The translations under genes were made by a program, and so were the position numbers. A model generated the notes under the pieces. That model worked only from the letters and a program-made list of their open reading frames with translations, did no database searches and was not told the origin of the DNA. Shown one piece after another: positions 7,832-57,200 of a stretch of 64,000 bases of DNA. The stretch is from Eledone cirrhosa. Taxonomy: Eukaryota. Positions within the stretch are counted from its first letter, which is position 1. Each line of letters opens with the position of its first letter. Location: contig OZ024742.1 of NCBI GenBank assembly GCA_964016885.1, forward strand, positions 346,518,001 through 346,582,000, given 5' to 3'.

Positions 7832-7839
7832 ACAATATA

Positions 7840-8199: not shown

Positions 8200-8203
<4 letters not shown>
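7840..8203. mobile_element. Older fold-back copy of the 573-bp HHR element family (see 32758-33762)
   Basis: 7840-7982 resembles 33190-33310; 8030-8203 resembles the reverse complement of 32758-32930; flanked by (TA)n. Confidence 0.75.
8037..8130 (+). ncRNA. Hammerhead ribozyme, U3-A8 variant, partly decayed (GAAC)
   Basis: tcccc-TTGATAA-gtcggca...taccac-GAAC-CTACGTAGTC-gggga; stem I covaries with tcctc/gagga in the 33-kb copies. Confidence 0.6.
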
Positions 8204-8274
<71 letters not shown>

Positions 8275-9651: not shown

Positions 9652-10890
9652 TGTAGAAGTGGTTACACAACAGTTAGTTCACCATACCGAGAACAATTGT
9701 TTCACCTTAGCGGATCCTCAGCTCGTAATGGACATGGTTATACGGAGCAGGAAGGACAACCGTACGAACACGCATGCGTAAAAATGATCACTTCACACAG
9801 GAAATACTAAAATGCGTGCGAGAGGTGTAAGGGAGACAACTGCGAAAGTCCGAAAAGTTTCTAGTTGATAAGAAAATTAGGATTTTGTTGTAATTCAATC
9901 CGGAGCTTTGTAGTTATGTAAGAGGTGTTTCCAGACGTGGGGACAACGTGTGAAGAATTCATTTCTCGTGTTTAGGCAATCACTATTGCGTAATCTCTTT
10001 AGAATATTTATTCGTTCATCGATACATAGTCCACACGACGGATTGCCCCTTGCGTATGGCTTGGCCTTAGTGATGGCTTTCCATTGAATGGAGTAGTCTA
10101 TACTTGAGTCCTTGAGGGACCATGCGTGGCTCGCGAGTTTCGTGGATTAACGTCTGTCCGGGTACCTAAAGGTCGACTGGTGGTTCAGGAAGCGTTCCTT
10201 AAATCGGCCCTCCGCCATACCCACATAGGATTTGACCTCCTGTGGTTGATTTGGTCGGTTGGAAGTGACCACAGCTTCATAAACTACAGCGGGTGTGTTG
10301 CATTGCTGTTGAAGGGGACAAGCTTCGGGCTTACGGCAAGAGCACCCTGGTGGGGTGTTGCTCTTATGGTTGTTGGTCATTTGAGCCTTCATGTTCTTAG
10401 CTCAGGAGTATCCTAGTTTTACTTTGTGTCGGTTAAAGGTGGAGCGTTATTTATGACCTATTGGAAAGTGTCTATCTAAATATTCTAAAGAGATTACGCA
10501 ATAGTGATTGCCTAAACACGAAAAATGAATTCTTCACACGTTGTCCACACGTCTGGAAACACCTCTTACATAACTACAAAGCACCGGATTGAATTACAAC
10601 AACATGCTAATTTTCTTATCAACTAGAAACTTTTCGGACTTTCGCAGTCATCTCCCTTACACCTCTCGTACGCATTTTAGTATTGCCTTTGTGAAGTGAT
10701 CGTTTCTGCGCATGCGCGTTCGTACGGTTGTCCTTCCTGTTCCATATAAGCATGTCCATTACGAGCTGAGCATCCGGTAAGGTGAAACAATTGTTCTCGG
10801 TATGGTGAACTAACTGTTGTGTAACCACTTCTACCTAACTCGTCCCATGGACTGAGTGTTCTACCACTACGGATATTACCTTCCAGTGTA
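9652..10890 (-). mobile_element. 5'-truncated PLE (GIY-YIG end plus pLTR) with an inverted pLTR, next to (TA)n
   Basis: ORF 10147-10392 reads CSCRKPEACPLQQQC...VVYEAV...SYVGMAEGRFKERFLNH; 9652-10008 is mirrored at 10478-10835; same family as 49683-50625. Confidence 0.85.
9688..9725 (-). ncRNA. Minimal hammerhead ribozyme in a PLE pLTR
   Basis: cgag-CTGAGGA-tccgctaaggt-GAAACAATTGTT-ctcg with palindromic stem III ACAATTGT. The inverted copy at 10762-10799 has CTGAGCA (mutated). Confidence 0.65.
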
Positions 10891-20119: not shown

Positions 20120-20697
20120 TAGGCTTTTATATTTATATGTGAGCTGATAGAGTACAGTCTAAGGATTTACAGAAACCCATGAAGCTAGATTTAACACCTG
20201 TCTAGTGGGTCCGGGTATGATTTTACATTCATTTATATTATTGACGTATTGTTTTATTGATATTTTTTATCTGTTTGTCCCGAATCTTCCTTTATCGATT
20301 TTAAATCGTATGGTTGATTGTAGACTTGTTCTATATGTGACGGTATTTTAACGATAGTTATAGCTCTGATTCATCTGAATTATTGAGCCCTCTGCCGCTC
20401 ATGTCGAATCTCGTTTATCGTGAACTCGTGCGCCGATTTTTCGATACTCGATCTTTCTAATATATTTAGCTCTGGACATAGCTATCCACCAGTTAATTTT
20501 ATTGCTCATTTTTTGTCGATTCTATTGAGTGATGAATAGCTTTTGTTTTATTTTAACATGTCTATTGAGCACTCTAATTCGATATGTGTATTTCCACATT
20601 CACTCGAATTGTTTTCGCGGATATAGGGGTTATCTCCCTTGTCTAATGCCATGTGCGTTTTTCACTGGTAGTTGGCTCCTCTACCGCCAGGAAAAAA

Positions 20698-20833
20698 ACT
20701 CGTTGAGAAAGTAAAACTCCGTTCCGCTTGCTCTAGTAGGCTTTTATATTTATATGTGAGCTGATAGAGTACAGTCTAAGGATTTACAGAAACCCATGAA
20801 GCTAGATTTAACACCTGTCTAGTGGGTCCGGGT
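20698..20833 (+). ncRNA. Type I hammerhead ribozyme, U3-A8 variant, extended stems II and III
   Basis: actcg/cgggt stem I, TTGAGAA (20703), gtaaa/tttac stem II, GAAA (20789), ACCCA..CTAGA/TCTAG-TGGGT stem III, GTC at 20826-20828. Confidence 0.75.
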
Positions 20834-21313
20834 ATGATTTTACATTCTTTTAATTATTGACGTATTGTTTTATTGATATTTTTTATCTGTTTGTCCCGAA
20901 TCTTCCTTTATCGATTTTAAATCGTATGGTTGATTGTAGACTTGTTCTATATGTGACGGTATTTTAACGATAGTTATAGCTCTGATTCATCTGAATTATT
21001 GAGCCCTCTGCCGCTCATGTCGAATCTCGTTTATCGTGAACTCGTACGCCGATTTTTCGATACTCGATCTTTCTAATATATTTAGCTCTGGGCATAGCTA
21101 TCCACCAGTTAATTTTATTGCTCATTTTTTGTCGATTCTATTGAGTGATGAATAGCTTTTGTTTTATTTTAACATGTCTATTGAGCACTCTAATTCGATA
21201 TGTGTATTTCCACATTCACTCGAATTGTTTTCGCGGATATAGGGGTTATCTCCCTTGTCTAATGCCATGTGCGTTTTTCACTGGTAGTTGGCTCCTCTAC
21301 CGCCAGGAAAAAA

Positions 21314-21449
21314 ACTCGTTGAGAAAGTAAAACTCCGTTCCGCTTGCTCTAGTAGGCTTTTATATTTATATGTGAGCTGATAGAGTACAGTCTAAGGATT
21401 TACAGAAACCCATGAAGCTAGATTTAACACCTGTCTAGTGGGTCCGGGT
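21314..21449 (+). ncRNA. Second copy of the U3-A8 hammerhead
   Basis: Same motif as 20698-20833 shifted by 616; GTC at 21442-21444. Confidence 0.75.
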
Positions 21450-21686
21450 ATGATTTTACATTCATTTATATTATTGACGTATTGTTTTATTGATATTTTT
21501 TATCTGTTTGTCCCGAATCTTCCTTTATCGATTTTAAATCGTATGGTTGGTTGTAGACTTGTTCTATATGTGACGGTATTTTAACGATAGTTATAGCTCT
21601 GATTCATCTGAATTATTGAGCCCTCTGCCGCTCATGTCGAATCTCGTTTATCGTGAACTCGTGCGCCGATTTTTCGATACTCGATC

Positions 21687-21758
<72 letters not shown>

Positions 21759-28126: not shown

Positions 28127-28795
28127 AAATGAAAAACCGAAGGCAAGGTAAAATTTCCAATCATTTTAATCACGACACATGTTTCAATAAGAGATAGATC
28201 GTTCGTGAAGCCATGATCGATTATCACTGATCTCGTCAGGTGAAAATGAATTGTCTTCAAATTCTTGATATGAGGGACAAAATTAGCAATGTTCACTCAC
28301 AGAGTTTATTCCCTCATATGAAGATCAAGCAGTCAAAATACGGCGACTGCTATTATCTTCAGTTAAGGTCATAAAACTATCAAGTTTCTATATCCCAATA
28401 GCTACAAAAGACGCTGGACATCAATCAAATCTGTAGAATTACAGTCGGTCACAGTTAATGTGAGTGGGTACAAACACACTCAACACCCACACACACCGCC
28501 TCAAGGTCAAAGAAATAAAAATATATATATATATACACATACCAACACAGTATCAGATCTGTAGAACTATAGACGGTCACAATTAGTGTGAGTAGGTACA
28601 CTCACACTCTCACACACACCGAAGCGGTGTCAAAGAAAAAATAATAAATATAAGAATATACCAACATAGTATTCACCGAAAGTTAGTTTACAAAACAACA
28701 CATGTTACATTGGTTAAATCTCAATTTAACGATGTAAATTGGAAATATTGGGTCAACCGCAACCCCATACACAAGCAAGTAAGTTCAGTTCAGTT

Positions 28796-30050
28796 AGTTA
28801 ACAGCAGGTGGGATACGAGGGAGGATCAATATAGATTTCATGTTGTATTACCTCCTAGTCCCAATGTTGATGGTACCACTGGAAACAACCACCCAGGTAC
28901 TAACACGGGGTCTGAGCACCGTAATGCCAGCGGAAACTCTAATTGTAACCTTAATTGTAGAACTGATAAAACAACCGTTGAACGTAAAATGGAACGAGGG
29001 TCGAGTAGAGGGAATAGGGATAAATGTAGCAGATGCACAGTAGATATAACCCCGGCTATCGACGGTAATCCCAATGGCTTCACGGGAGGTACACTGCCCC
29101 GGAGACTTGGGACGATTCCGAACACAATCGGGACACCCCAGAACATCATCAACCCACAGGCAGTTTTCAGTTATAATAGACCAGTAGCTACTAAGGAGAC
29201 AGGTAACTCTAATATAGTTAGTAAAAACAAGAGGCATCGGACCAGAAAAATCCTGTGGTATAACCCCCCTTACTCCACTGACCTGACCACTAGTATAGCT
29301 AAGCTTTTCTTTAGGGCATTATACAAATGCTTCCCTAGATCACACAGATAATATAAAATATTCAATAGGAATACCATCAAGCTGTCCTACTCCACAACCA
29401 GTAACATAGCTCAGAATATAGCTAAGATGAATTATAGTAGACTTAGGATAGCCCAAGGGGGGACTAGACATGGCAGAACTAATGGCAGCTCTATGGATGA
29501 ACGGACTCATGCACGTGAGGCGAGTCGGGTCACACCAACCCCTGGGAATTTACCCATAGAGCAGACAAGAACTGAGACTCCAAAGTTACCGTGGTTCCTG
29601 TGGAACAACCCAGGTCGATAACAGAAAATGTAATTGCAGGAACACCGCCACTTGCCCCATGGCTGGGAAATGCCTCACCAAAAACATAGTCTACGACTGT
29701 AAGGTCTCCACTCTTGATAGAACCTTCAGGTATGTTGGGGCAACTGCCACTGAATGTAAGGCTAGATGGTATAATCACCGCAATACCTTTAATAGATTAG
29801 ATTTAAAAAATAGCACGGCGCTTTCTGAATTAGTCTGGAAGCTTAAACAACAGAATATAGAGTACTCCTTATCCTAGTCCATAATTTGCTCAGCCCAGCC
29901 TTATAACGGCAGCACTGGCGTCTGTAATTTATGTATAGCTGAGATCTTTAATATTATTAGAGGCGGCCCCCTATTAATCAATAGGAGAACGGATTCTTTC
30001 AGCAATTGCCAACTAGAACCTCGAAAACCTTCCGCAGGATTTTTGGAAAG
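28796..30050 (+). pseudogene. PLE post-RT linker plus GIY-YIG, with stops and frameshifts
   Basis: RKILWYNPPYS...IAKLFF...CFP, NRNTIKLSYSTT and CLTKNIVYDCKV...YVGATATECKARWYNHRNTF...STALSELVWKLK are collinear with ORF 36232. Confidence 0.85.
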
Positions 30051-31779: not shown

Positions 31780-31865
<86 letters not shown>

Positions 31866-31866
<1 letters not shown>

Positions 31867-32666
31867 AAATTCATAGGGATACATGTATATATTTAGTCAT
31901 AGTCACAGATGCATATGAGTGTGGCTACCTTTCACGGTGTGGCTCAATGAAGAATTAATTAAGCAAATAAGCTATATGTAAAATTGTAAGTTTGAAGAAT
32001 TATTAGATAAAATATATAGTCTTTTCTCTCCCGAGTCCGTAGAAATCAACCAGATAAATAATCATTTAAACGAGGCTATAAGTTTAAAATGTAACTATGA
32101 AGAAATAATAGACAAATGATACAGACTATCTTCCGCGAGGGACAGCCAGATTAAATTTATCTTGTCATTCCTTTTAGCCCGTAGAAAATGACTACACAAA
32201 TAATCAACTAAACGGAGTTAGGTCTAAAATAGAAGTTAGAAGAGAAAATGCATATAAACTTTACCAAAATTACTCTAGTCCTGACTGCCGACAGTCTCGT
32301 TCCTTTTTTGCGGATATATCTGATCCTGGATTTATCCACGAGGCTTGGAGCTTATCAAGAGACACCTCGAGTCTGGACTAAAATTTCTACCGTGATCCAC
32401 GCCAGAAATGAATTCAAAAATGGCTAACTCCGTTTAGTTGATTATTTGTCTAGTCATTTTCTACGGGCTAAAAGGAATGACTAGATAAATTTTAACTGGC
32501 TGTCCCTCGCGGAAGATAGTCTGCATCATTTGTCTATTATTTCTTCATAGTTACATTTTAAACTTATAGCCTCGTTTAAATGATTATTTATGTGGTTGAT
32601 TTCTACGGACTCGGGAGAGGAAAGACTATATATTTTATCTAATAATTCTTCAAACTTGCAATTTTA
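31866..32666 (-). mobile_element. Fold-back copy of the about 683-bp HHR element family
   Basis: 31975-32220 is inverted at 32424-32666; collinear with 39775-40483 in permuted order. Confidence 0.75.
32278..32363 (-). ncRNA. Hammerhead ribozyme, U3-A8 core, A14G-decayed
   Basis: Reverse complement: gtctc-TTGATAA-gctcc...ggaac-GAGACTGTCGGCAGTC-aggac, at the same position as the C3-G8 HHR at 40074. Confidence 0.55.
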
Positions 32667-32674
32667 TATATGTA

Positions 32675-32761
<87 letters not shown>

Positions 32762-32830
32762 TATGAAGAGAGAAGAAACATTTAGATATAATTAGTAATA
32801 AAATGTATCATACCTAAACTGCTTCTAGAT

Positions 32831-32920
32831 TCCTCGACTACGTAGTTTCGTGGCATAAACAAAAACAATACATCATAAAGATATAGAGCTTTTGCGAGGT
32901 CTGCCGACTTATCAAGAGGA
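32831..32920 (-). ncRNA. Type I hammerhead ribozyme, U3-A8 variant
   Basis: Reverse complement: tcctc-TTGATAA-gt(c)ggca...tgccac-GAAACTACGTAGTC-gagga, with palindrome ACTACGTAGT. Confidence 0.75.
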
Positions 32921-33403
32921 TACCTCGTTTTACTAGCTTCAAGAACGCGTCTATATGATGTGAGAAAGAATCCCAAAAGGCGGAAGGGGAGATAGTCACG
33001 TGATACAACGGTCAAGAAACAGAGCTAAGCCTCTTATAACCCCGAAAAAATACCACGGAGGCGGAGGGGGTATTTATATCGAAGCCGTAGAAGAGGTGGT
33101 GAAGGAGGCGAGAAGTATGAGTACTGGCAGCTTTCCAGCAGTCACCACACTTCAAAGATTACTCGACCAGAGGGAGTTATGAACAATATATTTAGAAACA
33201 CACAGATACATGAATATCTCCACATCCATCCTTGAGTTAATGGTGCCAACCTTAACCGATGTTGCTCTATGAATAACTGGGACAGACCAATCCGGTTGGA
33301 TTAGACTGAACCAGTATCAGAGCTAAAAGTACATTATGAAGAGAGAAGAAACATTTAGATATAATTAGTAATAAAATGTATCATACCTAAACTGCATCTA
33401 GAT

Positions 33404-33493
33404 TCCTCGACTACGTAGTTTCGTGGCATAAACAAAAACAATACATCATAAAGATATAGAGCTTTTGCGAGGTCTGCCGACTTATCAAGAGGA
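33404..33493 (-). ncRNA. Second tandem copy of the U3-A8 hammerhead
   Basis: Same motif as 32831-32920 shifted by 573. Confidence 0.75.
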
Positions 33494-33758
33494 TACCTCG
33501 TTTTACTAGCTTCAAGAACGCGTCTATATGATGTGAGAAAGAATCCCAAAAGGCGGAGGGGGAGATAGTCACGTAATACAACGGTCAAGAAACAGAGATA
33601 AGCCTCTTATACTGGTTCAGTCTAATCCAACCGGATTGGTCTGTCCTAGTTATTCATAGAGCAACATCGGTTAAGGTTGGCACCATTAACTCAAGGATGG
33701 ATGTGGATATATTCATGTATATGTATGTGTCCGCATGTATCTGTGTGTTTCTAAATAT

Positions 33759-33835
<77 letters not shown>

Positions 33836-33926
33836 CGAAGGAAATGTGGTAAGGAACCAGGTGGGCCATAACGCACCAAAGTACTCAATACTTGAGGTAG
33901 TAGAGTGGGTAATAGGAACCAGTAAG

Positions 33927-34020
33927 ACCCCGACAGCTGAGCTCAAGCCGTTTCGACGGCTAATTCTGGACTAAATGAAAATTTATCCTGGTATTTAAAT
34001 AGCCGATCTTCTCAAGGGGT
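33927..34020 (-). ncRNA. U3-A8 hammerhead in the inverted pLTR
   Basis: Reverse complement of 36117-36210. Confidence 0.75.
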
Positions 34021-36116
34021 AATTCCATATATGGTCAAAGTGATTGTCAAAAATCAGTAGTAATTCTGTGGTTGCAAATTAGTAGGGGAGATGGTGGCTA
34101 AACCTGCCAGTAGGAGAAAGAGGGGAGGGGGTGGAGTAGACCCAATCAAGCGTTGGTAGTGCCAGCTACAGCTGGGCATGAGGTCAAAGAAGATACAGGG
34201 GAGGGGGAGGGGGAGGAAGTCGGAACGGTAGGTAGAACAATGGGGGGTAGAAATATATAGGAAAGAAAAAATACTGAGAGTGAAGAAAAGCAAATAAGTG
34301 TAAAGAAAAAAGTAAAGTAAATTAAATTCTACGACCTAGGTCTCAGGCTATTGTTAGGCTAGAATAAAATAAAGAAAGAAAGAAAGAAGTAAAGAAAGAA
34401 ATAAATAAAGAAATAACGAAATAAGTAAAAGAACTAGGTGGGACGGTATAGGCAAGGACCCTTTTAAGAGGTATAAGTACGTAAATGATACGGTGACGGG
34501 TCAACAAAAGGGGCCAAAATACTAAAGAGACTACCACGAAATAAACAATAAAGGTTTCCATCCCGGGCCAGCAACGACCCAGTGCAGCAAAGTGAACTTG
34601 TACGAGATAATAATTCTGAGTCCCGAGAAAAATATATACTAATGCTAACTCTAAAAGATCTAAAACAAGCTACATGAAAGTTCGTACGAAATAAAGGTAG
34701 AATACGGAGAAATAAATTCAGAATCCACCCCGCCCAGAAGAAAAGCGAAGCAAGAAATACTGAAACGAAAAAATAAGGCATAAGTGCCACTAAGAAATAT
34801 AGAGGGCACAGAGAATAGTGGGAGCGGTCGGAAAAAGGGGGCAAGTATCCGGGGTCTAAGCCAACTGCTATAAAGGGCGGAGTCCGCCAAATCTATCATA
34901 GACTAGGGGAGGGGTGGTGGGGGTACTAAGGCTACATGGGGCCAAAGGGCAGCCTCGGGTGGGCGAGAAAAGACGCCGACAAAGGAGAAGAGCTGGGGTA
35001 GAAGGACTAAGGAGAGAGGGGGGAAGGAAATAAAGGAAGCGATAAAAGAATACAAAGAAGATCTTACGTCTTCCTTGGCAAGCAGGGGTTACATCGCTTC
35101 CTTTATTTCCTTCCCCCCTCTCTCCTTAGTCCTTCTACCCCAGCTCTTCTCCTTTGTCGGCGTCTTTTCTCGCCCACCCGAGGCTGCCCTTTGGCCCCAT
35201 GTAGCCTTAGTACCCCCATCACCCCCTCCCCTAGTCTATGATAGATTTGGCGGACTCCGCCCTTTATAGCAGTTGGCTTAGACCCCGGATACTTGCCCCC
35301 TTTTTCCGACCGCTCCCACTATTCTCTGTGCCCTCTATATTTCTTAGTGGCACTTATGCCTTATTTTTTCGTTTCAGTATTTCTTGCTTCGCTTTTCTTC
35401 TGGGCGGGGTGGATTCTGAATTTATTTCTCCGTATTCTACCTTTATTTCGTACGAACTTTCATGTAGCTTGTTTTAGATCTTTTAGAGTTAGCATTAGTA
35501 TATATTTTTCTCGGGACTCAGAATTATTATCTCGTACAAGTTCACTTTGCTGCATTGGGTCGTTGCTGGCCCGGGATGGAAACCTTTATTGTTTATTTCG
35601 TGGTAGTCTCTTTAGTATTTTGGCCCCTTTTGTTGACCCGTCACCGTATCATTTACGTACTTATACCTCTTAAAAGGGTCCTTGCCTATACCGTCCCACC
35701 TAGTTCTTTTACTTATTTCGTTATTTCTTTATTTATTTCTTTCTTTACTTCTTTCTTTCTTTCTTTATTTTATTCTAGCCTAACAATAGCCTGAGACCTA
35801 GGTCGTAGAATTTAATTTACTTTACTTTTTTCTTTACACTTATTTGCTTTTCTTCACTCTCAGTATTTTTTCTTTCCTATATATTTCTACCCCCCATTGT
35901 TCTACCTACCGTTCCGACTTCCTCCCCCTCCCCCTCCCCTGTATCTTCTTTGACCTCATGCCCAGCTGTAGCTGGCACTACCAACGCTTGATTGGGTCTA
36001 CTCCACCCCCTCCCCTCTTTCTCCTACTGGCAGGTTTAGCCACCATCTCCCCTACTAATTTGCAACCACAGAATTACTACTGATTTTTGACAATCACTTT
36101 GACCATATATGGAATT

Positions 36117-36210
36117 ACCCCTTGAGAAGATCGGCTATTTAAATACCAGGATAAATTTTCATTTAGTCCAGAATTAGCCGTCGAAACGGCTTGAGCTCAG
36201 CTGTCGGGGT
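36117..36210 (+). ncRNA. Type I hammerhead ribozyme, U3-A8 variant, 5' pLTR
   Basis: acccc/ggggt stem I, TTGAGAA (36122), ga(t)cggcta/tagccgtc stem II, GAAA (36183), ACGGCT/AGCTGT stem III, GTC at 36203-36205. Confidence 0.8.
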
Positions 36211-36231
36211 CTTACTGGTTCCTATTACCCA

Positions 36232-38553
36232 GTGCAGCAAAGTGTATTGAGTACTTTGGTGCGTTATGGTCCACCTGGTTCCTTACCACATTTCCTTCGT
36301 TATCTAACTCCTACTCCCGTAGTAGAGCACTTTCCGACCCTACCACGCCGTATCCAGACTTTTCCGCTAAGCTCAATTCATTTCACCCGCACCATGCGAA
36401 AACACAACATTGACTTCTCTACCAAGAACATCCCAATCCCACCGAAAAAACTTTACCTTCGGATGCTCACGCAAAAAATCGATCTATTTGCGAAAAGACT
36501 TAGATGGAGAACTTTTTTCTATGACAGATATTGCGACAACCAAGACTTCGGCACCAAGGAGAGATTCGGATTTATTACCTACAAATCTTCGCCCCTGAAC
36601 CCCTTGCTCGCACCCTTCGAGAATGACCTCTTCCAACTGGTCAAGAACATTAAATTTAAACCCAGACACAACCGATTCCTACAAAAACTCCGTAGCAACT
36701 TAACAGAGTATGATAACACAAATGACATCATGGTGCATTCGGATAAAACTGGGAACCTATACTTTGTCAACCCTGACAGATACCACACACTGATCAGGAG
36801 CAGCCTAAACTCCACCTATAAAAAGGCCAACCACTCTTGCATCGAGGACATAAATCGAGATGGACAACAAATCACCTCCAGCCTCGGGGTCGCCGACCGC
36901 ACGGAACCTCTAGACCCACGGACACCATACTTCACACTGAAGGACCATAAATCCGATTTTGACCGTAAACCCTCTATCAGGCTTATTAACCCAACGAAGT
37001 CTGACATAGGGAGAATCGGCAAAAAAATCCTAGACCGCGTGATACCAAAAGTCAAGCAACACACCCGACTTAGCCTATGGATCAACACCCAGCAAGTAAT
37101 CTCCTGGTTCAGCAATATGGAGGATAAACGAGAAACTAAATTCATACAGTTCGACATAGAGAGCTACTATGCTTCAATCACCTTACCGCTACTTACTGCC
37201 GCCTTGGACTTCGCCGAAACACTTGTGCCCATCACCGACCAGGAAAGAAAAATCATGCTCCACGCCAGGAAGACAGTCTTACTCTTTGACGACTCTAAAT
37301 GGATAAAAAGAGCTCCCGACTCACCCTTCGACGTCAGCATGGGCGCCACGGATTCGGCGGAGGTCACAGATCTTATAGGATTATTCCTAATAGCCAAACT
37401 CACTGATATGTTTCCTGCATTCGGTGGTGGATTGTACCGTGATGATGGGCTCCTTACCCTTAAAGGGTACAACCCCAGTAGTACAGATCGGGTCCGGAAA
37501 CAATTAATCAGATTCTTCCGCGACTGGGGATTTAAAATAACCCTACAAACGTCCCTGACCCGAGTAAACTTCCTGGACGTGACCCTCGACCTCGAAAACG
37601 ACCTGTACTACCCATACAGGAAACCTAATGACAATCTGCACTACATCCACCGCCGATCAAACCATCCTAGGAACATCACAAACAACCTGGTCAAAAACAT
37701 CTCCCTCCGCATATCCCGTTTGTCAGCTAATGAGCGGATATTCGATGAACATGCGCCTTATTACAACCAGGCCCTCAAGCGGAGTGGTTTCCGGGAGGAA
37801 ATATCCTACTGTCCAGCTCCCATTAGCGGAACCAGCAGGAGACACCGCCGCTCACGCAATGTAACATGGTTCAATCCTCCCCACAATGCAGAGGTGACAA
37901 CTCCCATCGGGAAACTATTCTTTAGGCTCATTGAAAAACACTTCCCATTACAACACCGCTACCACAACATAATTAACAAAAATACCATCAAACTCTCTTA
38001 CAGCACTACACCAAACTTCGCACAAAACATCGTCTCCTCTAACAACAAAAAACTCAACCCCGATGGCAGAAATAACCTAAATAGCAGTGGAGAACCGACC
38101 AGGAGGTGTAACTGCCCGGATAGATCTATTTGCCCACTCGACAATAGATGCAGAGACCGTAATGTGATCTACCAGTGCAACGTGAGGACGGATACCTCCA
38201 ACAAAGCCTATATAGGACTTACCGCATGTGACTTCAAGACCCGGCTATACCAACATAGACATACCTTCCGAAACCCGGCCCGGCGTCACGCCACTACACT
38301 TTCGGGCCACATATGGGACCTCAAGGACAACAACATCACCTATGATCTCACTTGGAGATTACTGTCCAGAGCCAATTCTTACACGGGAGGACGCCGTCCG
38401 TGCAATTTATGCTCGGAGGAAACTTTACAAATGCTGTTTTCGACGGACCAACTCCTAAACAAGAAAGATGAACTGGTCACTGCATGTAAACATAGATTGC
38501 GTAGGACTTACCTCGCCCTCAAACCCCATAATGACCCGGGGGGGGTAGACTAG
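36232..38553 (+). CDS. PLE reverse transcriptase plus GIY-YIG endonuclease (first ATG 36394, 719 aa)
   Basis: RT motifs FIQFDIESYYASI, FDVSMGA, GLYRDDGL and VNFLDVTL; WFNPP; CNC..CPL..C; VIYQC...YIGLT...R...H; CNLCSEE; no interruptions. Confidence 0.95.
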   Translation: MQQSVLSTLVRYGPPGSLPHFLRYLTPTPVVEHFPTLPRRIQTFPLSSIHFTRTMRKHNIDFSTKNIPIPPKKLYLRMLTQKIDLFAKRLRWRTFFYDRYCDNQDFGTKERFGFITYKSSPLNPLLAPFENDLFQLVKNIKFKPRHNRFLQKLRSNLTEYDNTNDIMVHSDKTGNLYFVNPDRYHTLIRSSLNSTYKKANHSCIEDINRDGQQITSSLGVADRTEPLDPRTPYFTLKDHKSDFDRKPSIRLINPTKSDIGRIGKKILDRVIPKVKQHTRLSLWINTQQVISWFSNMEDKRETKFIQFDIESYYASITLPLLTAALDFAETLVPITDQERKIMLHARKTVLLFDDSKWIKRAPDSPFDVSMGATDSAEVTDLIGLFLIAKLTDMFPAFGGGLYRDDGLLTLKGYNPSSTDRVRKQLIRFFRDWGFKITLQTSLTRVNFLDVTLDLENDLYYPYRKPNDNLHYIHRRSNHPRNITNNLVKNISLRISRLSANERIFDEHAPYYNQALKRSGFREEISYCPAPISGTSRRHRRSRNVTWFNPPHNAEVTTPIGKLFFRLIEKHFPLQHRYHNIINKNTIKLSYSTTPNFAQNIVSSNNKKLNPDGRNNLNSSGEPTRRCNCPDRSICPLDNRCRDRNVIYQCNVRTDTSNKAYIGLTACDFKTRLYQHRHTFRNPARRHATTLSGHIWDLKDNNITYDLTWRLLSRANSYTGGRRPCNLCSEETLQMLFSTDQLLNKKDELVTACKHRLRRTYLALKPHNDPGGVD

Positions 38554-39660
38554 GGCTATAACACCCCACTTGCCGATTTTGCAATGGGTAACCCCTGCTT
38601 GCCAAGGAAGACGTAAGATCTTCTTTGTATTCTTTTATCGCTTCCTTTATTTCCTTCCCCCCTCTCTCCTTAGTCCTTCTACCCCAGCTCTTCTCCTTTG
38701 TCGGCGTCTTTTCTCGCCCACCCGAGGCTGCCCTTTGGCCCCATGTAGCCTTAGTACCCCCACCACCCCCTCCCCTAGTCTATGATAGATTTGGCGGACT
38801 CCGCCCTTTATAGCAGTTGGCTTAGACCCCGGATACTTGCCCCCTTTTTCCGACCGCTCCCACTATTCTCTGTGCCCTCTATATTTCTTAGTGGCACTTA
38901 TGCCTTATTTTTTCGTTTCAGTATTTCTTGCTTCGCTTTTCTTCTGGGCGGGGTGGATTCTGAATTTATTTCTCCGTATTCTACCTTTATTTCGTACGAA
39001 CTTTCATGTAGCTTGTTTTAGATCTTTTAGAGTTAGCATTAGTATATATTTTTCTCGGGACTCAGAATTATTATCTCGTACAAGTTCACTTTGCTGCACT
39101 GGGTCGTTGCTGGCCCGGGATGGAAACCTTTATTGTTTATTTCGTAGTAGTCTCTTTAGTATTTTGGCCCCTTTTGTTGACCCGTCACCGTATCATTTAC
39201 GTACTTATACCTCTTAAAAGGGTCCTTGCCTATACCGTCCCACCTAGTTCTTTTACTTATTTCGTTATTTCTTTATTTATTTCTTTCTTTACTTCTTTCT
39301 TTCTTTCTTTATTTTATTCTAGCCTAACAATAGCCTGAGACCTAGGTCGTAGAATTTAATTTACTTTACTTTTTTCTTTACACTTATTTGCTTTTCTTCA
39401 CTCTCAGTATTTTTTCTTTCCTATATATTTCTACCCCCCATTGTTCTACCTACCGTTCCGACTTCCTCCCCCTCCCCCTCCCCTGTATCTTCTTTGACCT
39501 CATGCCCAGCTGTAGCTGGCACTACCAACGCTTGATTGGGTCTACTCCACCCCCTCCCCTCTTTCTCCTACTGGCAGGTTTAGCCACCATCTCCCCTACT
39601 AATTTGCAACCACAGAATTACTACTGATTTTTGACAATCACTTTGACCATATATGGAATT

Positions 39661-39754
39661 ACCCCTTGAGAAGATCGGCTATTTAAATACCAGGATAAAT
39701 TTTCATTTAGTCCAGAATTAGCCGTCGAAACGGCTTGAGCTCAGCTGTCGGGGT
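39661..39754 (+). ncRNA. U3-A8 hammerhead in the 3' pLTR
   Basis: Same motif as 36117-36210; GTC at 39747-39749, 20 nt before the element end. Confidence 0.8.
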
Positions 39755-39774
39755 CTTACTGGTTCCTATATATA

Positions 39775-40481
39775 TATACTATAAATTATGTCCATAGAAT
39801 CATTTTATAATATATATACACAATTTCCTCTCCCAATTAGCATAATCAACCACACAAAAACCCAATTAAACCAGGCTATAAGATTAAAAGGCACTTATGA
39901 AGAAATAATAGATAAATAAACTATAGCCATCTATTCGCGATCAACAGCCATAGAATATTTACCCACCATTTCAATAGCACGTGGAAATCGATTAAATATA
40001 CCGTCAACCATACACAATTAGGTACAAAATTAAAGTTAGAAGAAAAAATGCATATACATATACCAGGATTACGTTTCTACCCTTTAGGGTTTCGTTCGCT
40101 TTCGGAAATATCCTATCAAGGATAAATTCTCGAGCTTCGAACTCATCAGGAAATAAACTCACTTGGACAAAGATTTTTCTTAAATGATCCTCGCCAGAAA
40201 CGAATTCAAAATGGCTGAGAACTGTGACGGGGCAGTGGTCAAGTCAGAAAAAATGTGATTGGTCCCTTACGACGAGTGGGCTGGTTGCTAGAAAGCGCAG
40301 CCCAATATTGCCTAAATTGCATCTCAACCTTATGGAAGATTATCAAATATAAAAATTTACATATACACAAACTAGACAAAGTCATAGATATATATGTTTT
40401 GGCAATCATTCACGATGTGGCTCAATGATGAATTAATAAATTAAATAATCAGAGCAATATACTATATATTATGTCCATAGA

Positions 40482-40483
<2 letters not shown>
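39775..40483 (-). mobile_element. About 683-bp HHR-bearing monomer with about 25-bp terminal redundancy
   Basis: TATACTATA(A/T)ATTATGTCCATAGAAT occurs at both ends, 683 bp apart; homologous to 31866-32425. Confidence 0.7.
40074..40153 (-). ncRNA. Canonical type I hammerhead ribozyme
   Basis: Reverse complement: tttc-CTGATGA-gttcg...cgaac-GAAACCCTAAAGGGTA-gaaa. Confidence 0.8.
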
Positions 40484-40539
<56 letters not shown>

Positions 40540-40542
<3 letters not shown>

Positions 40543-41530
40543 ATTATAGGCACCCGTTTTACATGTGTTGTATTGAAGCGAATAACTATGTGTATACTCT
40601 GGGAATGTATCTTACATTGACCATCGAGTACGCTGGGACATAACCGGTCCTGGCATTGATAAATATGCTGGCTCCGTCAACCCTTATTATTATTATCTCC
40701 GAACTAGCGGACTACTGAGAGTAAGTTAAACATTTTTTCACTTTTATTGTGGTTTTGTTTTGATATACACTCTTTTTCCTGCTATTAATTCTGTCTCTCA
40801 CTCTTTTAAGTTGTGAAATAGACTGGTTATATACGCACGCGGCTGACACATTTCAGCTCGCTACTATATTGGTATATAATGGATTATCGCATTTAAAGTC
40901 CGTTAAAGGTTCTTGGCACTACCATTGTTACTATCGCTTTCCTCTAGCCATGGGACTTGGAGACATGAGCCGAATGCTACCATTCTATCATACATCGATG
41001 TGGACTGCTATTTCTAATAGCCATCTTTTCACCTTTTGAAAACTTGTGTGTGAGACACGTTGGCTGGGTGCTTTTGACGGGAACGAAAAGATTGGTTTTC
41101 TAGTCCCCCGCAACCACGTAAAATTTGTAAATTGGTGGCTAGTCGAGAGATAAAATCGTATCGGGTGCCATTTGCTAATCGCTTTACCGTGTCAGTCGTC
41201 ACAAACAGACATGACCGGCATGGGCTGGTGTTTGGATTCTGTCGATCGATTGGTTATTGATTAGGCGATACCCACTGATGAAGCCGCATAAGCCGACGGT
41301 GCATTCTTGCATAATATATGCAGACAGATGGCGCAGTGCACCTCACTGCTGCATTAGTGCGGCCGAAACTCGAGTCCGGGAACTATTATAGGCACCCATT
41401 TTACGTGTGTTGTATTGAAGCGAATAACTTTGTGTATACTCTGGAAATGTATCTTACATTGCCCATGGAATACGCTGAGATACAACCGGTACTGGCATTG
41501 ATAAATATGGTGGGTCCGTCAACTCCTTAT
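40540..41530 (+). mobile_element. About 842-bp HHR-bearing unit with about 148-bp direct terminal repeat
   Basis: 40540-40687 is repeated (diverged) at 41382-41530; lies between (TG)n and (TA)n. Confidence 0.75.
41271..41380 (+). ncRNA. Type I hammerhead ribozyme with long stem II
   Basis: ccca-CTGATGA-agccgca...tgcggcc-GAAACTCGAGTC-cggg, with palindrome ACTCGAGT. Confidence 0.65.
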
Positions 41531-45181: not shown

Positions 45182-46131
45182 TAAACAATTAAGTTAAAAA
45201 TGTACATCCACATATGTATACTGAAATACTAGTATGCATATGAATACACACACGTATACATATGTAGATGTACCGAGTTTTTCACTGGTCACTTTACTGT
45301 GAGTGTCCAGCTATTCTGTATGTAAACACACAGACAAACCGGTTTTTAGAGTCATACTGGTTTTTGAGGAAACACCTTTCCTCTATTCTTCAGAAAGCCA
45401 GACAAGGAATATTGAACTAGTTTCGATGTTGTTACATCTCATCAGCAATATTTACCTATCTTCTGGTCTCTCTAGAGAATCGTAAAAGCACATATCGTTA
45501 TATGCTTTTTCTATGAAAATTAGTAGTGGGCAGACTAATTTGCATAGAGCGTGAGTACGTACCGGTTCAACGGAGACGATAAAAACAAATAACGAAACGA
45601 AATTAAATTTCGTTTCGTTTGTAACTCACTTTTGTATGACTGACGCTTAAACAATTAAGTTAAAAATCGTCTCCGTTGAACCGGTACGTACTCACGCTCT
45701 ATGCAAATTAGTCTGCCCACTACTAATTTTCATAGAAAAAGCATATAACGATATGTGCTTTTACGATTCTCTAGAGAGGCCGGAAGATAGGTAAATATTG
45801 CTGATGAGATGTAACAACATCGAAACTAGTTCAATATTCCTTGTCTGGCTTTGTGGAGAATAGAGGAAAGGTGTTTCCTCAAAAACCAGTATGACTCTAA
45901 AAACCGGTTTGTCTGTGTGTTTACATACAGAATAGCTGGACACTCACAGTAAAGTGACCAGTGAAAAACTCGGTACATCTACATATGTATACGTGTGTGT
46001 ATTCATATGCATACTAGTATTTCAGTATACATATGTGGATGTACATTTTTAACTTAATTGTTTAAGCGTCAGTCATACAAAAGTGAGTTACAAACGAAAC
46101 GAAATTTAATTTCGTTTCGTTATTTGTTTTT
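45182..46131. mobile_element. Fold-back of two permuted 466-bp HHR-bearing monomers
   Basis: TAAACAATTAAGTTAAAAAT at 45182 and 45648; 45667-46131 is the reverse complement of the same unit starting at a different point. Confidence 0.85.
45794..45838 (+). ncRNA. Minimal type I hammerhead ribozyme (mirror copy 45408-45452 on -)
   Basis: aatattg-CTGATGA-gatgt aaca acatc-GAAACTAGTT-caatatt; 7-bp stem I, palindrome ACTAGT. Confidence 0.8.
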
Positions 46132-48684: not shown

Positions 48685-49500
48685 ATTCTGGGCACCATCC
48701 TGGCAAGCAATGGCGATGTGGAGCTCGACATCAACTGTCATATCAGTAAAGGAGCCGCAGTTTTCCAGCGGTCGTCTTCATGCATCAACACCAGGATCAA
48801 GCTGCACTTGTACAAGAGCATCGTGCTGCCGACAGTGCTTTACCCGAGCGAGACCTGTAAGAGCTACAGAGACGGCTGAACACATTCCACCAGCGGTGCC
48901 TGTGACTGATCCTTCGTGTGTCCTGGCGCGACCCAGTGCAAAACGAGGAAAGCCTGCGGAGAGCCGAGTTGTGGACGCTACAGAGGATGGTCATGAAGTG
49001 GCAGTGCCACCTGGCTGGCCATATTATGCGCCTGCCCTACGAATGACACTCGAAAACAGCGACGAACTGGACTCCACCTGGTGGCAAACAGAGGCGGGGT
49101 TGCCTCAGGATCACCTGGCGACGAACTGGACTCCACCTGGCGGCTAACGGAGGTGGGGTTGCCCCAGGATCACCTAGCGACGAACTGGACTCCATCTGGT
49201 GGCAAACGGAGGTGGGGTTGCCCCAGGTTTACCTGGCGATGAACTGGACTCCACCTGGCGGAAAACAGAGGCGGGGTTGCCCCAGGATCACCGGGCATCG
49301 AACTGAACTCCACCTGGCGGCAAACGGAGGGGGCTGCCCTAGGATCACCTGACGATGAACTGGACTCCACCTGGCGGAAAACAGAGGCGGGGTTGCCCCA
49401 GGATCACCTAGCGACGAACTGGACTCCACCTGGCGGCAAACGGAGGGGGCTGCCCCAGGATCACCTGACGATGAACGTTCCGAAAATACCTGATGGCAGC
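48685..49500 (+). pseudogene. Decayed RTE-clade LINE 3' region
   Basis: LG..LASNGDVELDINCHISKGAAVF, KLHLYKSIVLPTVLY.SET, FHQRCL..IL.VSW.D, LAGHIMR and WTPPGG. Confidence 0.8.
49061..49476. repeat. 58-59-bp minisatellite, about 7 copies, derived from the LINE coding end
   Basis: GACGAACTGGACTCCACCTGG...GCCCCAGGATCACCTGGC repeated. Confidence 0.9.
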
Positions 49501-49686: not shown

Positions 49687-50625
49687 GTGGAACACTGGAA
49701 GGTAATATCCGTAGTGGTAGAGCACTCAGTCCAAGGGACGAGTTAGGTAGAAGTGGTTACACAACAGTTAGTTCACCATACCGAGAACAATTGTTTCACC
49801 TTCGCGGATCTTCAGCTCGGGATGTGTATGGTTATAGGAACAGGAAGGACAACTGTACGAACGCGCATGCGCAGAAACTCGGTCATTTCACACAGGCAAT
49901 AGTAGACTGCGTGCGGGAGGTGTAAGGGAGATAACTGCGAAAGACCGGAAAGTTTTTAGGTTGAAAATAAAATAAAAAAATTAAAAATTAAATAACAAAG
50001 AATCAGTCCGGAGCCTTGTAGTTATGCAATAGATGTTTGGTGACGTGTGGACAACGTGTGAAAAATTCAGTTCTCGTGTTTAGGCAATCACTATTAGGAT
50101 AGTTATTCGTTCGTCAATACATAAGCCACACGTTGGATTTCCCCTTGCGTATGGCTTGGACTTAGTGATGGCTTTCCATTGAATGGAGTAGCCTATACTT
50201 GAGTCCTTGAGGGACCATACGTGGCTCGCGAGTTTCGTGGATGTCCGGGTATCTGAAGGTAGACTGGTGGTTCAGGAAGCGCTCCTTGAATCGGCCCTCC
50301 GCCATGCCCACATAGGATTTGACCTCCTGTGGTTCGTTTGGTCGGTTGGAAGTGACCACAGCTTCATAGATTACAGCTAGTGTGTTGCATTGCTGTTGAA
50401 GGGGGCAAGCTTCAGGCTTACGGCAAGAGCACCCTGGTGTGGTTTTGCTCCTAGGGCTGCTGGTGATGTGGGCCTTTATGTTCTTAGCGCAGGAGTATCC
50501 TAGTTTAACTTTGTGTCGGTTAAAGATAAAGCGGTATTTGTGACCTATGGGGAAGTGTCTATCTAAGAGGCCTAGAAATGTTTTGCTACATTGGTTTTAA
50601 CGTTGAGTGAGAAGGGAGGAGAGAA
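49683..50625 (-). mobile_element. 5'-truncated PLE (GIY-YIG end plus pLTR), family of 9652-10890
   Basis: SYVGMAEGRFKERFLNHQSTF; the 3' end joins (TA)n at the same nucleotide context as the 10890 end. Confidence 0.85.
49781..49820 (-). ncRNA. Minimal hammerhead ribozyme
   Basis: Reverse complement: ccgag-CTGAAGA-tccgcgaaggt-GAAACAATTGTT-ctcgg. Confidence 0.7.
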
Positions 50626-51217: not shown

Positions 51218-54200
51218 TTGTAATATAAGTCCACATTAAGATACTTGTAATATAAGCCCACATTAAGATGCTTGTATTATAAGCCAACATTAAGATACTT
51301 GTATTAAAAGCCTACATTAAGATACTTGTAATATAAGCCTAGATTAAGATACGTGTATTATAAGCCAACAGTAAGATACTTGTATTATAAGCCTACATTA
51401 AGATACTTGTAATATAAGCCAACATTAAGATACTTGTAATATAAGCCTACATTAAGATACTTGTAATATAAGCCCACATTAAGATACCTGTATTATAAGC
51501 CTACAGTAAGATATTTGTAATATAAGCCTTCATTAAGATACTTGTATTATAAGCCTAGATTAAGATACTTGTAATATAAGCCAACATTAAGATACTTGTA
51601 ATATAAGCCAACATTAAGATACTTGTAATATAAGCCTAAATTAAGATACTTGTAATATAAGCCCACATTAAGATACTTGTAATATAAGCCCACATTAAGA
51701 TACGTGTAATATAAGCCTAAATTAAGATACTTGTAATATAAGCCTAAATTAAGATACTTGTAATATAAGCCTACATTAATATACTTGTAATATAAGCCTA
51801 CATTAGGATACGTGTAATATAAGCCTACATTAAGATACTTGTAATATAAGCCAACATTAAGATACTTGTAATATAAGCCTAAATTAAGATACTTGTAATA
51901 TAAGCCTACATTAAGATACTTGTAATATAAGCCTACATTAAGATACGTGTAATATAAGCCTACATTAAGATACTTGTAATATAAGACAACATTAAGATAC
52001 TTGTAATATAAGCCTAAATTAAGATACTTGTAATATAAGCCAACATTAAGATACTTGTAATATAAGCCGACATTAAGATACTTGTAATATAAGCCTACAT
52101 TAAGATACTTGTAATATAAGCCTCCATTAAGATACTTGTATTATAAGCCTACATTAAGATACTTGTAATATAAGCCTACATTAAGATACTTGTATTATAA
52201 GCCTTCATTAAGATACTTGTAATATAAGCCTACATTAAGATACTTGTATTATAAGCCTACATTGAGATACTTGTATTATAACCCCACATTAAGACACTTG
52301 TAATATAAGCCTACATTAAGATACTTGTATTATAAGTCTACATTAAGATACTTGTAATATAAGCCGACATTAAGATACTTGTATTATAAGCCTACATTAA
52401 GATACTTGTAATATAAGCCTACATTAAGATACTTGTATTATAAGCCTACATTAAGATACTTGCATTATAAGCCCACATTAAGATACTTGTAATATAAGCC
52501 TACATTAAGATACTTGTATTATAAGCCTACATTAAGATACTTGTAATATAATCCCACATTAAGATACTTGTAATATAATCCCACATTAAGATACGTGTAA
52601 AATAAGCCAACATTAAGATACTTGTAATATAAGCCTACATTAAGATACTCGTAATATAAGCCTACATTAAGATACTTGTAATATAAGCCAACATTAAGAT
52701 ACTTGTAATATAAGCCCACATTAAGATACTTGTAATATAAGCCAACATTAAGATACTTGTATTATAAGCCTACATTAAGATACTTGTAATATAAGCCGAC
52801 ATTAAGATACTTGTAATATAAGCCTACATTAAGATACTTGTAATATAAGCCAACATTAAGATATTTGTATTATAAGCCTACATTAAGATACTTGTAATAT
52901 AAGCCTACATTAAGATACTTGTATTATAACCCTACATTAAGATACTTGTAATATAAGCCTAAATTAAGATACTTGTATTATAAGCCCACATTAAGATACT
53001 TGTAATATAAGCCAACATTAAGATACTAGTATTATAAGCCTACATTAAGATACATGGAATATAAGCCTACATTAAGATACTTGTATTATAAGCCAACATT
53101 AAGATACTTGTATTATAATCCCACATTAAGATACTTGTAATATAAGCCTGCATTAAGATACTTGTATTATAAGCCGACATTAAGATACTTGTATTATAAT
53201 TCCACATTAAGATACTTGTAATATAAGCCTACATTAAGATACTTGTATTATAAGCCCACATTAAGATACGTGTAATATAAGCCAACATTAAGATACTTGT
53301 AATATAAGCCTAAATTAAGATACTCGTAATATAAGCCTCCATTAAGATACTTGTATTATAAGCCAACATTAAGATACTTGTATTATAAGCCCACATTAAG
53401 ATACTTGTAATATAAGCCTTCATTAAGATACTTGTAATATATGTCTACATTAAGATACTTGTAATATAAGCCTCCATTAAGATACTTGTATTATAAGCCT
53501 GCATTAAGATACTTGTATTATAAGCCTACATTAAGATACTTGTAATATAAGCCTACATTAAGATACTTGTAATATAAGCCGACATTAAGATACTTGTAAT
53601 ATAAGCCAACATTAAGATACTTGTATTATAAGCCTACATTAAGATACTTGTAATATAAGCCGACATTAAGATACTTGTAATATATGCGAAAATTAAGATA
53701 CTTGTAATATAAGCCCACATTAAGATACTTGTAATATAAGCTTTCATTAAGATACCTGTATTATAAGCCTGCATTAAGATACTTGTAATATAACCCTACA
53801 TTAAGATACATGTATTATAAGCCTACATTAAGATACTTGTAATATAAGCCTAAATTAAGATAGTTGTATTATAAGCATACATTAAGATACTTGTATTATA
53901 AGCCTACATTAAGATACTTGTAATATAAGCCAACATTAAGATACTTGTATTATAAGCCTACATTAAGATACTTGTAATATAAGCCTGCATTAAGATACTT
54001 GTATTATAAGCCTACATTAAGATACTTGTATTATAATCCCACATTAAGATACTTGTAATATAAGCCTTCATTAAGATACTTGTATTATAAGCACACATTC
54101 AGATACTTGTATTATAAGCCTACATTAAGATACTTGTAATATAAGCCAACATTAAGATACTTGTAATATAAGTCTACATTAAGATACTCGTAATATAAGC

Positions 54201-57200
54201 CTACATTAAGATGCTTGTAATATAAGCCTACATTAAGATACTTGTAATATAATCCTACATTAAGATACTTGTAATATAAGCCTACATTAAGATACTCGTA
54301 ATATAAGCCTACATTAAGATACTTGTATTATAAGCCTACATTAAGATACTTGTAATATAATCCCACATTAAGATACTTGTATTATAAGCCTTCATTAAGA
54401 TACTTGTAATATAAGCCTACATTAAGATACTTGTATTATAAGCCTACATTGAGATACTTGTATTATAAGCCCACATTAAGACACTTGTAATATAAGCCAA
54501 CATTAAGATACTTGTAATATAAGCCTCCATTAAGATACTTGTATTATAAGCCTACATTAAGATACTTGTAATATAAGCCTACATTAAGATACTTGTATTA
54601 TAAGCCTTCATTAAGATACTTGTAATATAAGCCTACATTAAGATACTTGTATTATAAGCCTTCATTGAGATACTTGTATTATAAGCCAACATTAAGACAC
54701 TTGTAATATAAGCCTACATTAAGATACTTGTATTATAAGTCTACATTAAGATACTTGTAATATAAGCCGACATTAAGATACTTGTATTATAAGCCTACAT
54801 TAAGATACTTGTAATATAAGCCTACATTAAGATACTTGTATTATAAGCCTACATTAAGATACTTGCATTATAAGCCCACATTAAGATACTTGTAATATAA
54901 GCCTACATTAAGATACTTGTATTATAATCCTACATTAAGATACTTGTATTATAAGCCCACATTAAGATACTTGTAATATAATCCCACATTAAGATACTTG
55001 TAATATAATCCCACGTTAAGATACGTCTAAAATAAGCCAACATTAAGATACTTGTTATATAAGCCTACATTAAGATACTCGTAATATAAGCCTACATTAA
55101 GATACTTGTAATATAAGCCAACATTAAGATATTTGTATTATAAGCCTACATTAAGATACTTGTAATATAAGCCTACATTAAGATAATTGTATTATAAGCC
55201 TACATTAAGATACTTGTAATATAAGCCTAAATTAAGATACTTGTATTATAAGCCGACATTAAGATACTTGTAATATAAGCCAACATTAAGATACTTGTAT
55301 TATAAGCCTACATTAAGATACTTGGAATATAAGCCTTCATTAAGATACTTGTATTATAAGCCAACATTAAGATACTTGTATTATAATCCCACATTAAGAT
55401 ACTTGTAATATAAGCCTACATTAAGATACTTGTATTATAAGCCCACATTAAAATACTTGTATTATAAGCCCACATTAAGATACTTGTAATATAAGCCTAC
55501 ATTAAGATACTTGTATTATAAGCCCACATTAAGATACGTGTAATATAAGCCAACATTAAGATACTTGTAATATAAGCCTAAATTAAGATACTCGTAATAT
55601 AAGCCTCCATTAAGATACTTTTATTATAAGCCTACATTAAGATACTTGTATTATAAGCCCACATTAAGATACTTGTAATATAAGCCTTCATTAAGATACT
55701 TGTAATATAAGTCTACATTAAGATGCTTGTAATATAAGCCTACATTAACATACTTGTATTATAAGCCTACATTAAGATACTTGTAATATAAGCCGACATT
55801 AAGACACTTGTAATATAAGCGAAAATTAAGATACTTGTAATATAAGCCCACATTAAGATACTTGTAATATAAGCCTTCATTAAGATACTTGTATTATAAG
55901 CCAACATTAAGATACTTGTATTATAAGCCTACATTAAGATACTTGTATTATAAGCCTACATTAAGATACTTGTAATATAAGCCTAAATTAAGATAGTTGT
56001 ATTATAAGCATACATTAAGATACTTGTATTATAAGCCGACATTAAGATACTTGTAATATAAGCCAACATTAAGATACTTGTATTATAAGCCTACATTAAG
56101 ATACTTGTAATATAAGCCTCCATTAAGATACTTGTATTATAAGCCTACATTAAGATACTTGTATTATAAGCCCACATTAAGATACTTGTAATATAAGCCA
56201 ACATTAAGATACTTGTATTATAAGCCTACATTAAGATACTTGTAATATAAGCCTCCATTAAGATACTTGTATTATAAGCCTACATTAAGATACTTGTATT
56301 ATAAGCCCACATTAAGATACTTGTAATATAAGCCTTCATTAAGATACTTGTAATATAAGTCTACATTAAGATACTTGTAATATAAGCCTACATTAAGATA
56401 CTTGTATTATAAGCCTACATTAAGATACTTGTATTATAAGCCTACATTAAGATACTTGTAATATAAGCCTACATTTAGATACTTGTAATATAAGCCAACA
56501 TTAAGATACTTGTAATATAAGCCAACATTAAGATACTTGTATTATAAGCCTACATTAAGATACTTGTAATATAAGCCTACATTAAGATACTTGTAATATA
56601 AGCCTTCATTAAGATACATGTATTATAAGCCTTCATTAAGAAACTTGTAATATAAGCCTACATTAAGATACTTGTATTATAAGCCTACATTAAGATACTT
56701 GTATTATAAGCCCACATTAAGACACTTGTAATATAAGCCTACATTAAGATACTTGTATTATAAGTCTACATTATGATACTTGTAATATAAGCCCACATTA
56801 AGATACTTGTATTATAAGCCTACATTAAGATACTTGTAATATAAGCCTACATTAAGATACTTGTATCATAAGCCTACATTAAGATACTTGCATTATAAGT
56901 CCACATTAAGATACTTGTAATATAAGCCTACATTAAGATACTTGTATTATAAGCCTACATTAAGATACTTATATTATAAGCCAACATTAAGATACTTGTA
57001 ATATAATCCCACATCAAGATACTTGTAATATAATCCCACATTAAGATACTTGTTATATAATCCCACATTAAGATACTTGTAATATAATCCAACATTAAGA
57101 TACTTGTAATATAAGCCTAGGTTAATATACGTGTAATATAAGCCAACATTAAGATACTTGTATTATAAGCCTACATTAAGATACTTGTAATATAAGCCTA

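Follow-up and report, generated by a model that had tools for sequence, protein, structure and literature searches.

Penelope-like elements (PLEs) have been described as forming partial tandems, with 5′ truncation, inverted arms, a tail often found at one end and targeting to (TA)n (Craig et al. 2021, PMC8557442), the same account listing an RWK-type motif, DKT, a CxCx5C linker, a C-terminal nuclease and a (TA)n target as hallmarks of the Hydra clade. For one PLE, the Poseidon element of Anolis, reverse transcription has been found in vitro to begin at two internal start sites with the tail lying between them (Frangieh et al. 2024, PMC11167929). Hammerhead motifs in which the core pair between positions 3 and 8 is U-A in place of C-G have also been published (Perreault et al. 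2011, PMC3088659; Cervera and de la Pena 2014, PMC4209133), with the Cercyon elements of Schistosoma providing U3-A8 hammerheads in about 1,300 hits (PMC4209133).

The window analysed here, a stretch of 64,000 nucleotides (positions 346,518,001–346,582,000 of contig OZ024742.1) that is dense in microsatellites and comes from the 3.0 Gb assembly of Eledone cirrhosa, contains two related elements, A (31866–32671) and B (39775–40483). Their hammerhead motif is on the minus strand, and both are described in that orientation. We conclude, with a probability of roughly 85%, that these are non-autonomous PLEs carrying a hammerhead motif, that their apparent permutation is explained by two fixed start sites for reverse transcription and that a Hydra-clade element is the probable driver.

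Anatomy of elements A and B

Features of elements A and B and of the neighbouring Hydra-type element (window positions)
Feature	Position	Strand	Description
Element B	39775..40483	−	Partial tandem of one 683-nt non-coding unit and ~26 nt from the unit upstream; 3′ end within (TA)n, at the short (S) site
B tail segment (unit 1–111)	40347..40457	−	Internal in the window copy; the long (L) 3′ end of 13/100 B arms falls at the end of this segment
Element A, left arm	31866..32425	−	5′-truncated unit; end at the long (L) site
A tail segment	31866..31973	−	Homologous to 40347–40457
Element A, inverted right arm	32424..32671	+	Terminates within (TA)n at the short (S) site
Type I hammerhead motif of B	40073..40154	−	Core of C3-G8 type with a long stem II; cleavage predicted after 40078
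Type I hammerhead motif of A	32278..32363	−	U3-A8 core; in the window copy, A14G and C·A mispairing at the first stem I pair
Autonomous Penelope-like element, Hydra type	33834..39769	+	Separate from A and B; direct and inverted repeats around an ORF
Inverted arm of the Hydra-type neighbour	33834–34923		Long end
Pseudo-LTRs of the Hydra-type neighbour	35214–36225 and 38758–39769		Latter with short end; 78-nt tail runs to 36303
ORF of the Hydra-type neighbour	36394–38553		719 codons
U3-A8 hammerhead motifs of the Hydra-type neighbour	34015, 36122, 39666	−, +, +	

A preliminary description of this locus held that A and B are circular permutations of each other and that B is bounded by a 25-bp terminal repeat. 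Both observations were borne out. The 27 nt at 39774–39800 recur at 40457–40483 with a single mismatch. Element A aligns with a doubled 39775–40457 as one block across the junction (391/561 identities, E 1e-71); against a single B unit, the alignment splits into two parts (306/438 and 70/92). The full A unit is ~705 nt long, with A 11–584 aligning with B 123–683 and A 596–677 with B 7–85. The preliminary description did not include the inverted right arm of A, which is 96% identical to 31974–32221 and stops at the point homologous to the 3′ end of B. In the left arm the tail lies at the 3′ end, and it is this that makes A appear permuted relative to B.

A and B are copies from two sister, high-copy families of short non-coding repeats that are ~70% alike. 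The longest ATG frame in the units is 57 codons, the GC content is 34–36% and a tblastn comparison with the ORF of the Hydra-type neighbour gave no match inside them. Searches of the species’ own genome returned 5002 first-look candidates for one of the two families and 2994 for the other, 40 being scored in each case. Neither family proper was seen in 80 evenly spaced 10-kb stretches of the genome, which fits a copy number in the thousands rather than many tens of thousands. The copies are dispersed and their flanks are unrelated. Two further relatives, families D and E, were found in the flanks of copies and then searched for in the genome. Element A also contains an old internal repeat of ~105 nt (31971–32250; 69–75% identity), one block of which is missing from family D. 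The Penelope-type traits observed in A and B are the partial tandem (pseudo-LTR), 5′ truncation, the inverted 5′-truncated arm, the optional tail at one end and the lack of coding capacity.

Other repeats in this genome deserve mention. Family C (32759–33770) is a non-coding partial tandem with a period of ~573 nt, U3-A8 hammerheads at 32915 and 33488 (minus strand), an inverted arm, TA flanks, a weak profile match to the A/B clan and a relative at 7825–8204. At 45182–46064 lie inverted arms of 399 nt that both carry a minimal hammerhead motif of the C3-G8 type (45445, minus; 45801, plus), whilst a locus elsewhere in the genome (L204:8749–9700) is a classic array of the non-LTR retrozyme kind, with four hammerheads repeated every 311 nt. 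The window also contains a 27-bp satellite with >460 copies (51218–64000), a G-rich array of 22-bp repeats (1–1215) and a GC-rich one of 59-bp repeats (49058–49476).

Fixed 3′ ends and the pairing of inverted arms

Ends were mapped on arms in 210 loci found in seven genome searches (with the whole copy, the hammerhead only, the 3′ part or the tail), duplicates being removed by sequence and the best 30, or best 20–30, of the 40 scored matches being taken from each search. Among 100 distinct B arms, 79 have their 3′ end at unit position 683 (the S site), 13 near position 111 (the L site) and eight elsewhere, and 94 A arms divide into 36 at position 584 (S), 38 at 705 (L) and 20 elsewhere, these shares being dependent on the query and not genome-wide. 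The S and L sites are about 110–120 nt apart and both are used by the A and B families, the S sites of the two being homologous and the L sites lying within a few columns of each other. In the copies themselves, ends at S or L run into TA-rich flank in 86/92 cases in B and 58/74 in A, whilst the 5′ ends are scattered over the whole unit in both families. The shifted order of A and B stems from these two fixed end points, common to both families. The preliminary description had reasoned that fixed ends shared by all copies would speak against its view, and the mapping finds this for one end of the copies: the 3′ ends are fixed at two sites in both families and only the 5′ ends vary.

Family E, read by eye, uses the same two 3′ ends. 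The exception is locus L346, which has two S ends from different subfamilies; this inverted insertion (L346:726–1745) also shows a switch from B-like to E-like sequence inside the tail region.

Many arms are longer than one unit (55/115 in B, 24/97 in A), the maximum being 1670 nt or ~2.4 units. As the units are continuous head to tail, the template must have been terminally redundant, multimeric or circular.

The two end sites are not combined at random in inverted insertions. The 16 head-to-head B pairs (15 when the duplicate loci L043 and L044 are counted once) include five with an unclassified arm, and all 11 classified pairs join an S end to an L end. For A, 12 of 32 pairs are unclassified and the remaining 20 comprise 16 S+L and four L+L. 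Of the A and B pairs taken together, 27/31 classified are S+L and none is S+S; label shuffles matched the observed pairing in 316 and 480 of 100000. All four L+L pairs sit in one cluster at 89–90 Mb of C3 and are probably one duplicated event. Within the window, element A and the neighbouring Hydra-type element are each S+L. An inverted insertion would reflect priming twice, once on each DNA strand, from start sites that differ. A literature search of partial coverage found no published count of short/long pairing in inverted insertions.

The neighbouring element itself encodes an ORF with the motifs RWR at residue 37, DKT at 117, YRDD at 348 and CNCPDRSIC at 572, a nuclease domain read by eye and TA flanks. 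On the basis of these motifs it is assigned to the Hydra clade of PLEs; the ORF had no Pfam or PDB match (Pfam was run on three ORFs, PDB on one). The element is young, with 150 scored matches at 99–100%, some in tandem at 3531 bp, and is apparently intact. The C-terminal part of its ORF has 76,660 first-look candidates in the genome. Of 41 ends counted in 30 loci, 13 fall at 36225 and 16 at 36303, the same two-end pattern as in A and B, and one that corresponds to the known Penelope ‘tail’. A second Hydra-type family (locus L180), with a broken ORF that retains RWK, DKT and CxCx5C, likewise has two end sites, 76 nt apart, with four ends at the short one and 13 at the more distant one (23/25 loci, two overlaps left out, with only ends near the element considered). 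The short end of this second family directly precedes the 8-nt GCTCTGAT, as do those of B, E and family C, and an altered form is found in A; GCTCTGAT occurs 23 times in 851 kb, mostly elsewhere. A trimer at 20130–21700 with a period of ~616 nt, which ends in (TA)n, has GCTCTGAT ~100 nt before its end and contains a hammerhead-like core with one extra base.

Neither the window nor an 800-kb genome sample yielded alignable homology between A or B and the pseudo-LTR of any autonomous element, which leaves the short GCTCTGAT as the one link in sequence. The Hydra-type element of the window was rejected as the parent of A or B, there being no homology and a different sequence at the short end. Four further broken remnants of Hydra-type ORFs are present in the window, at 4206–4529, 9937–10494, 28596–30027 and 50092–50584 (29–53% identity).

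The hammerhead fold and the 3–8 pair

The preliminary description reported a C3-G8 core in B and a U3-A8 core in A, with stem III remodelled from one to the other, and both were found as claimed, on the minus strand. B reads CTGATGA at 40149–40143 and GAAAC at 40093–40089, with stem III ACCC/GGGT and a GUA site at 40080–40078; A reads TTGATAA at 32358–32352, with stem III ACTG/CAGT and a GUC site at 32285–32283. Absent from the earlier account is that the window copy of A has GAGAC in place of GAAAC, an A14G change seen in 1/56 family copies. A14G and the C·A mispairing where stem I begins caused this copy to fail the type I descriptor, and it is probably dead. The core N3-UGA-N-N8-A, GAAA and UH with a paired 3–8 is present in B and in the majority of each family and is lacking in the window copy of A; it is intact in 23/37 copies of the A U3-A8 group, 7/18 of the U3·G8 group and 62/75 of B. 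Families A, D and E have a palindromic stem III, which corresponds to what Cervera and de la Pena class as the dimer type (PMC4209133).

The type I descriptor gave eight matches in the window and one in five 51-kb Markov copies. When left free at positions 3 and 8, it found 18 C-G, nine U-A and one C-C match in an 800-kb genome sample, a few of which look spurious, against four in a 1.6-Mb null. U3-A8 is common in this genome, occurring also in the neighbouring Hydra-type element and in family C. Rfam at its gathering threshold gave no match in the whole window, and at E<=10 over 31800–40600 it gave 48 matches, all of them hairpin or repeat look-alikes below gathering and none a hammerhead; this silence is probably caused by the long stem II. 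Single-strand folding of the A and B motifs on the ribozyme strand gave z values of −0.95 and −0.62, so that energy alone lends no support.

A census of positions 3 and 8 covered 171 distinct hammerhead-bearing copies. The pair is C-G in 78/81 B and 13/14 E copies and U-A in 20/20 D and 34/56 A copies, a further 19/56 A copies having U·G. We built a midpoint-rooted tree of 86 rows (74/76 A+D, 8/81 B and 4/14 E) with positions 3 and 8 masked, in which a single branch with a support of 100/100, the bootstrap being not fully settled, separates B+E from A+D, and the switch between C3-G8 and U3-A8 is therefore one event in the clan. U·G is nested inside A and requires at least four changes, with one group of 16 holding 15 of the U·G copies; a subfamily with U3·G8, descended from U3-A8, has amplified. 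A literature search of partial coverage found no published account of an amplified U3·G8 form. As to the covariation of C3-G8 with U3-A8 put forward in the preliminary description, both cores are indeed present, but the change occurs on one branch only, was already published and is not strict, given the U3·G8 copies of A.

An anchored parse of 164/171 rows gave five groups that are 61–77% alike; in the majority sequences of these groups, 78/78 cells are paired and 11/16 pairs show two-sided changes, spread over all three stems. None of 20000 shuffles matched this, although such shuffles ignore relatedness. The fold is thus observed to be conserved, and several independent compensatory swaps make selection on the hammerhead fold likely, in agreement with the preliminary description.

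Proposed mechanism and comparison with known systems

A and B probably owe their insertion at (TA)n tracts to a Hydra-clade reverse transcriptase/endonuclease. The enzyme would nick a TA tract and begin reverse transcription at either of two fixed points, 110–120 nt apart, within an RNA that is terminally redundant, halting at a variable position, at times past one unit; priming again on the opposite DNA strand, it would often add an inverted arm, begun at the other site. The left arm of A would have started at the far site and stopped early, whilst B would have started at the near site with 1.04 units copied, giving the shifted block order. We infer that A and B are transcribed, that their hammerheads cleave and that a partner enzyme is used.

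The best of the alternatives keeps the same elements and the same start sites and differs in the template, which, following the non-LTR retrozyme model, would be a hammerhead-cut, ligated circular monomer RNA rounded more than once by the reverse transcriptase. The head-to-tail register is exact in arms of up to 2.4 units, and arms pass across the predicted cleavage site of B 99 times, as would be natural had the site been re-ligated. Four of the 115 B arms start at this site (positions 379–382; 0.64 expected, P 0.004), three of them cleanly at GAAAC, a hint that B undergoes some cleavage in vivo; arm stops are as numerous in other 4-nt windows, mostly at TA-rich spots. None of 97 A arms starts at the predicted site (0.56 expected), the difference between B and A being not significant (Fisher 0.13). 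Where an arm repeats a stretch, the repeats are more alike (95.8%) than they are to other arms (92.7%) in 29/31 cases, which fits a circle and a tandem transcript alike, and DNA cannot separate the two. Animal retrozymes have been shown to form circular RNAs (PMC7229834), and such RNAs have been proposed for Penelope elements as well (PMC4209133). Each of these points, however, also fits a linear read-through transcript of a partial tandem. Moreover, a circle needs two cuts, whereas two hammerheads are found in a few loci (L007, L025) and most arms have one or none, hammerhead mutants were without effect on insertion in vitro for one Penelope element (PMC11167929) and the U3·G8 subfamily has amplified. 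We therefore consider a circular template possible but doubtful. Of the circular or multimeric template claimed in the preliminary description, the head-to-tail continuity stands and the arbitrary opening of a circle does not, since the 3′ ends are fixed; no circle is required. A broader proposal, in which start sites are tied to target DNA strands, hammerheads generate RNA circles of ~690 nt and transposing lineages make a natural walk at the 3–8 pair (C-G, U-A, then U·G), is slightly less probable again and must be called unlikely. Were it true, these elements would form a natural series for asking whether Penelope mobilisation needs ribozyme cleavage.

Far less credible is the strong form of the earlier view, in which copies opened at arbitrary points of a circular RNA are free circular permutations: although the alignment of A with a doubled B crosses the junction, and 8/100 B and 20/94 A arms end away from S and L, the ends of 92/100 B and 74/94 A arms at two sites largely refute it, as do the end of the inverted arm of A at the B end and the same pattern in an autonomous neighbour. 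Least credible of all, by a small step, is a shuffling of the order at the DNA level by satellite-type duplication and deletion with the hammerhead a passive remnant, for which some segmentally duplicated copies and the many broken cores would speak but which fits poorly with copies dispersed among unrelated flanks, with 3′ ends that are fixed and 5′ ends that vary, with TA targets and with two-sided changes in 11/16 pairs between family majorities.

How do A and B compare with known systems? They resemble the PLEs described in PMC8557442 in their partial tandems, 5′ truncation, inverted 5′-truncated arm, one-end tail, hammerhead and (TA)n insertion, and differ from them in having no ORF, a tail of 110–121 nt rather than 30–40 nt and no alignable autonomous parent among the elements searched. 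The local Hydra tails, at 76–78 nt, are also longer than the 30–40 nt described there. With Poseidon they share two 3′ ends bounding a tail and AT-rich targets; in vitro, however, the Poseidon start site was equal on both DNA strands, whereas the inverted arms of A and B are almost always at different sites (PMC11167929).

A and B likewise resemble animal non-LTR retrozymes (Cervera and de la Pena 2020, PMC7229834; Li et al. 2026, 10.64898/2026.07.22.740005) in their non-coding unit, type I hammerhead, GC content below 45%, head-to-tail copies and co-occurrence with Penelope elements. Their unit of 683–705 nt, however, lies outside the 150–450 nt monomer size given for retrozymes (PMC7229834), and they differ further in being mostly 0.3–1.4 units long, with Penelope-type ends and inversions and seldom two hammerheads. 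The clan shares with the published U3-A8 variants (PMC3088659; Cercyon, PMC4209133) the same 3–8 swap, a long stem II, a short stem I, a palindromic stem III and opposite-strand pairs 100–700 bp apart; it departs from those variants, as described in these papers, in having both cores within one alignable clan and an amplified U3·G8 subfamily.

These elements are thus no new kind of replicon, their anatomy and core variant having already been described for PLEs and animal retrozymes. Their value is as test material: with subfamilies of C3-G8, U3-A8 and U3·G8 type, a genome that also holds young autonomous elements of Hydra type and a short/long rule that can be counted, it becomes easier to test whether Penelope elements need the hammerhead and pass through a circle.
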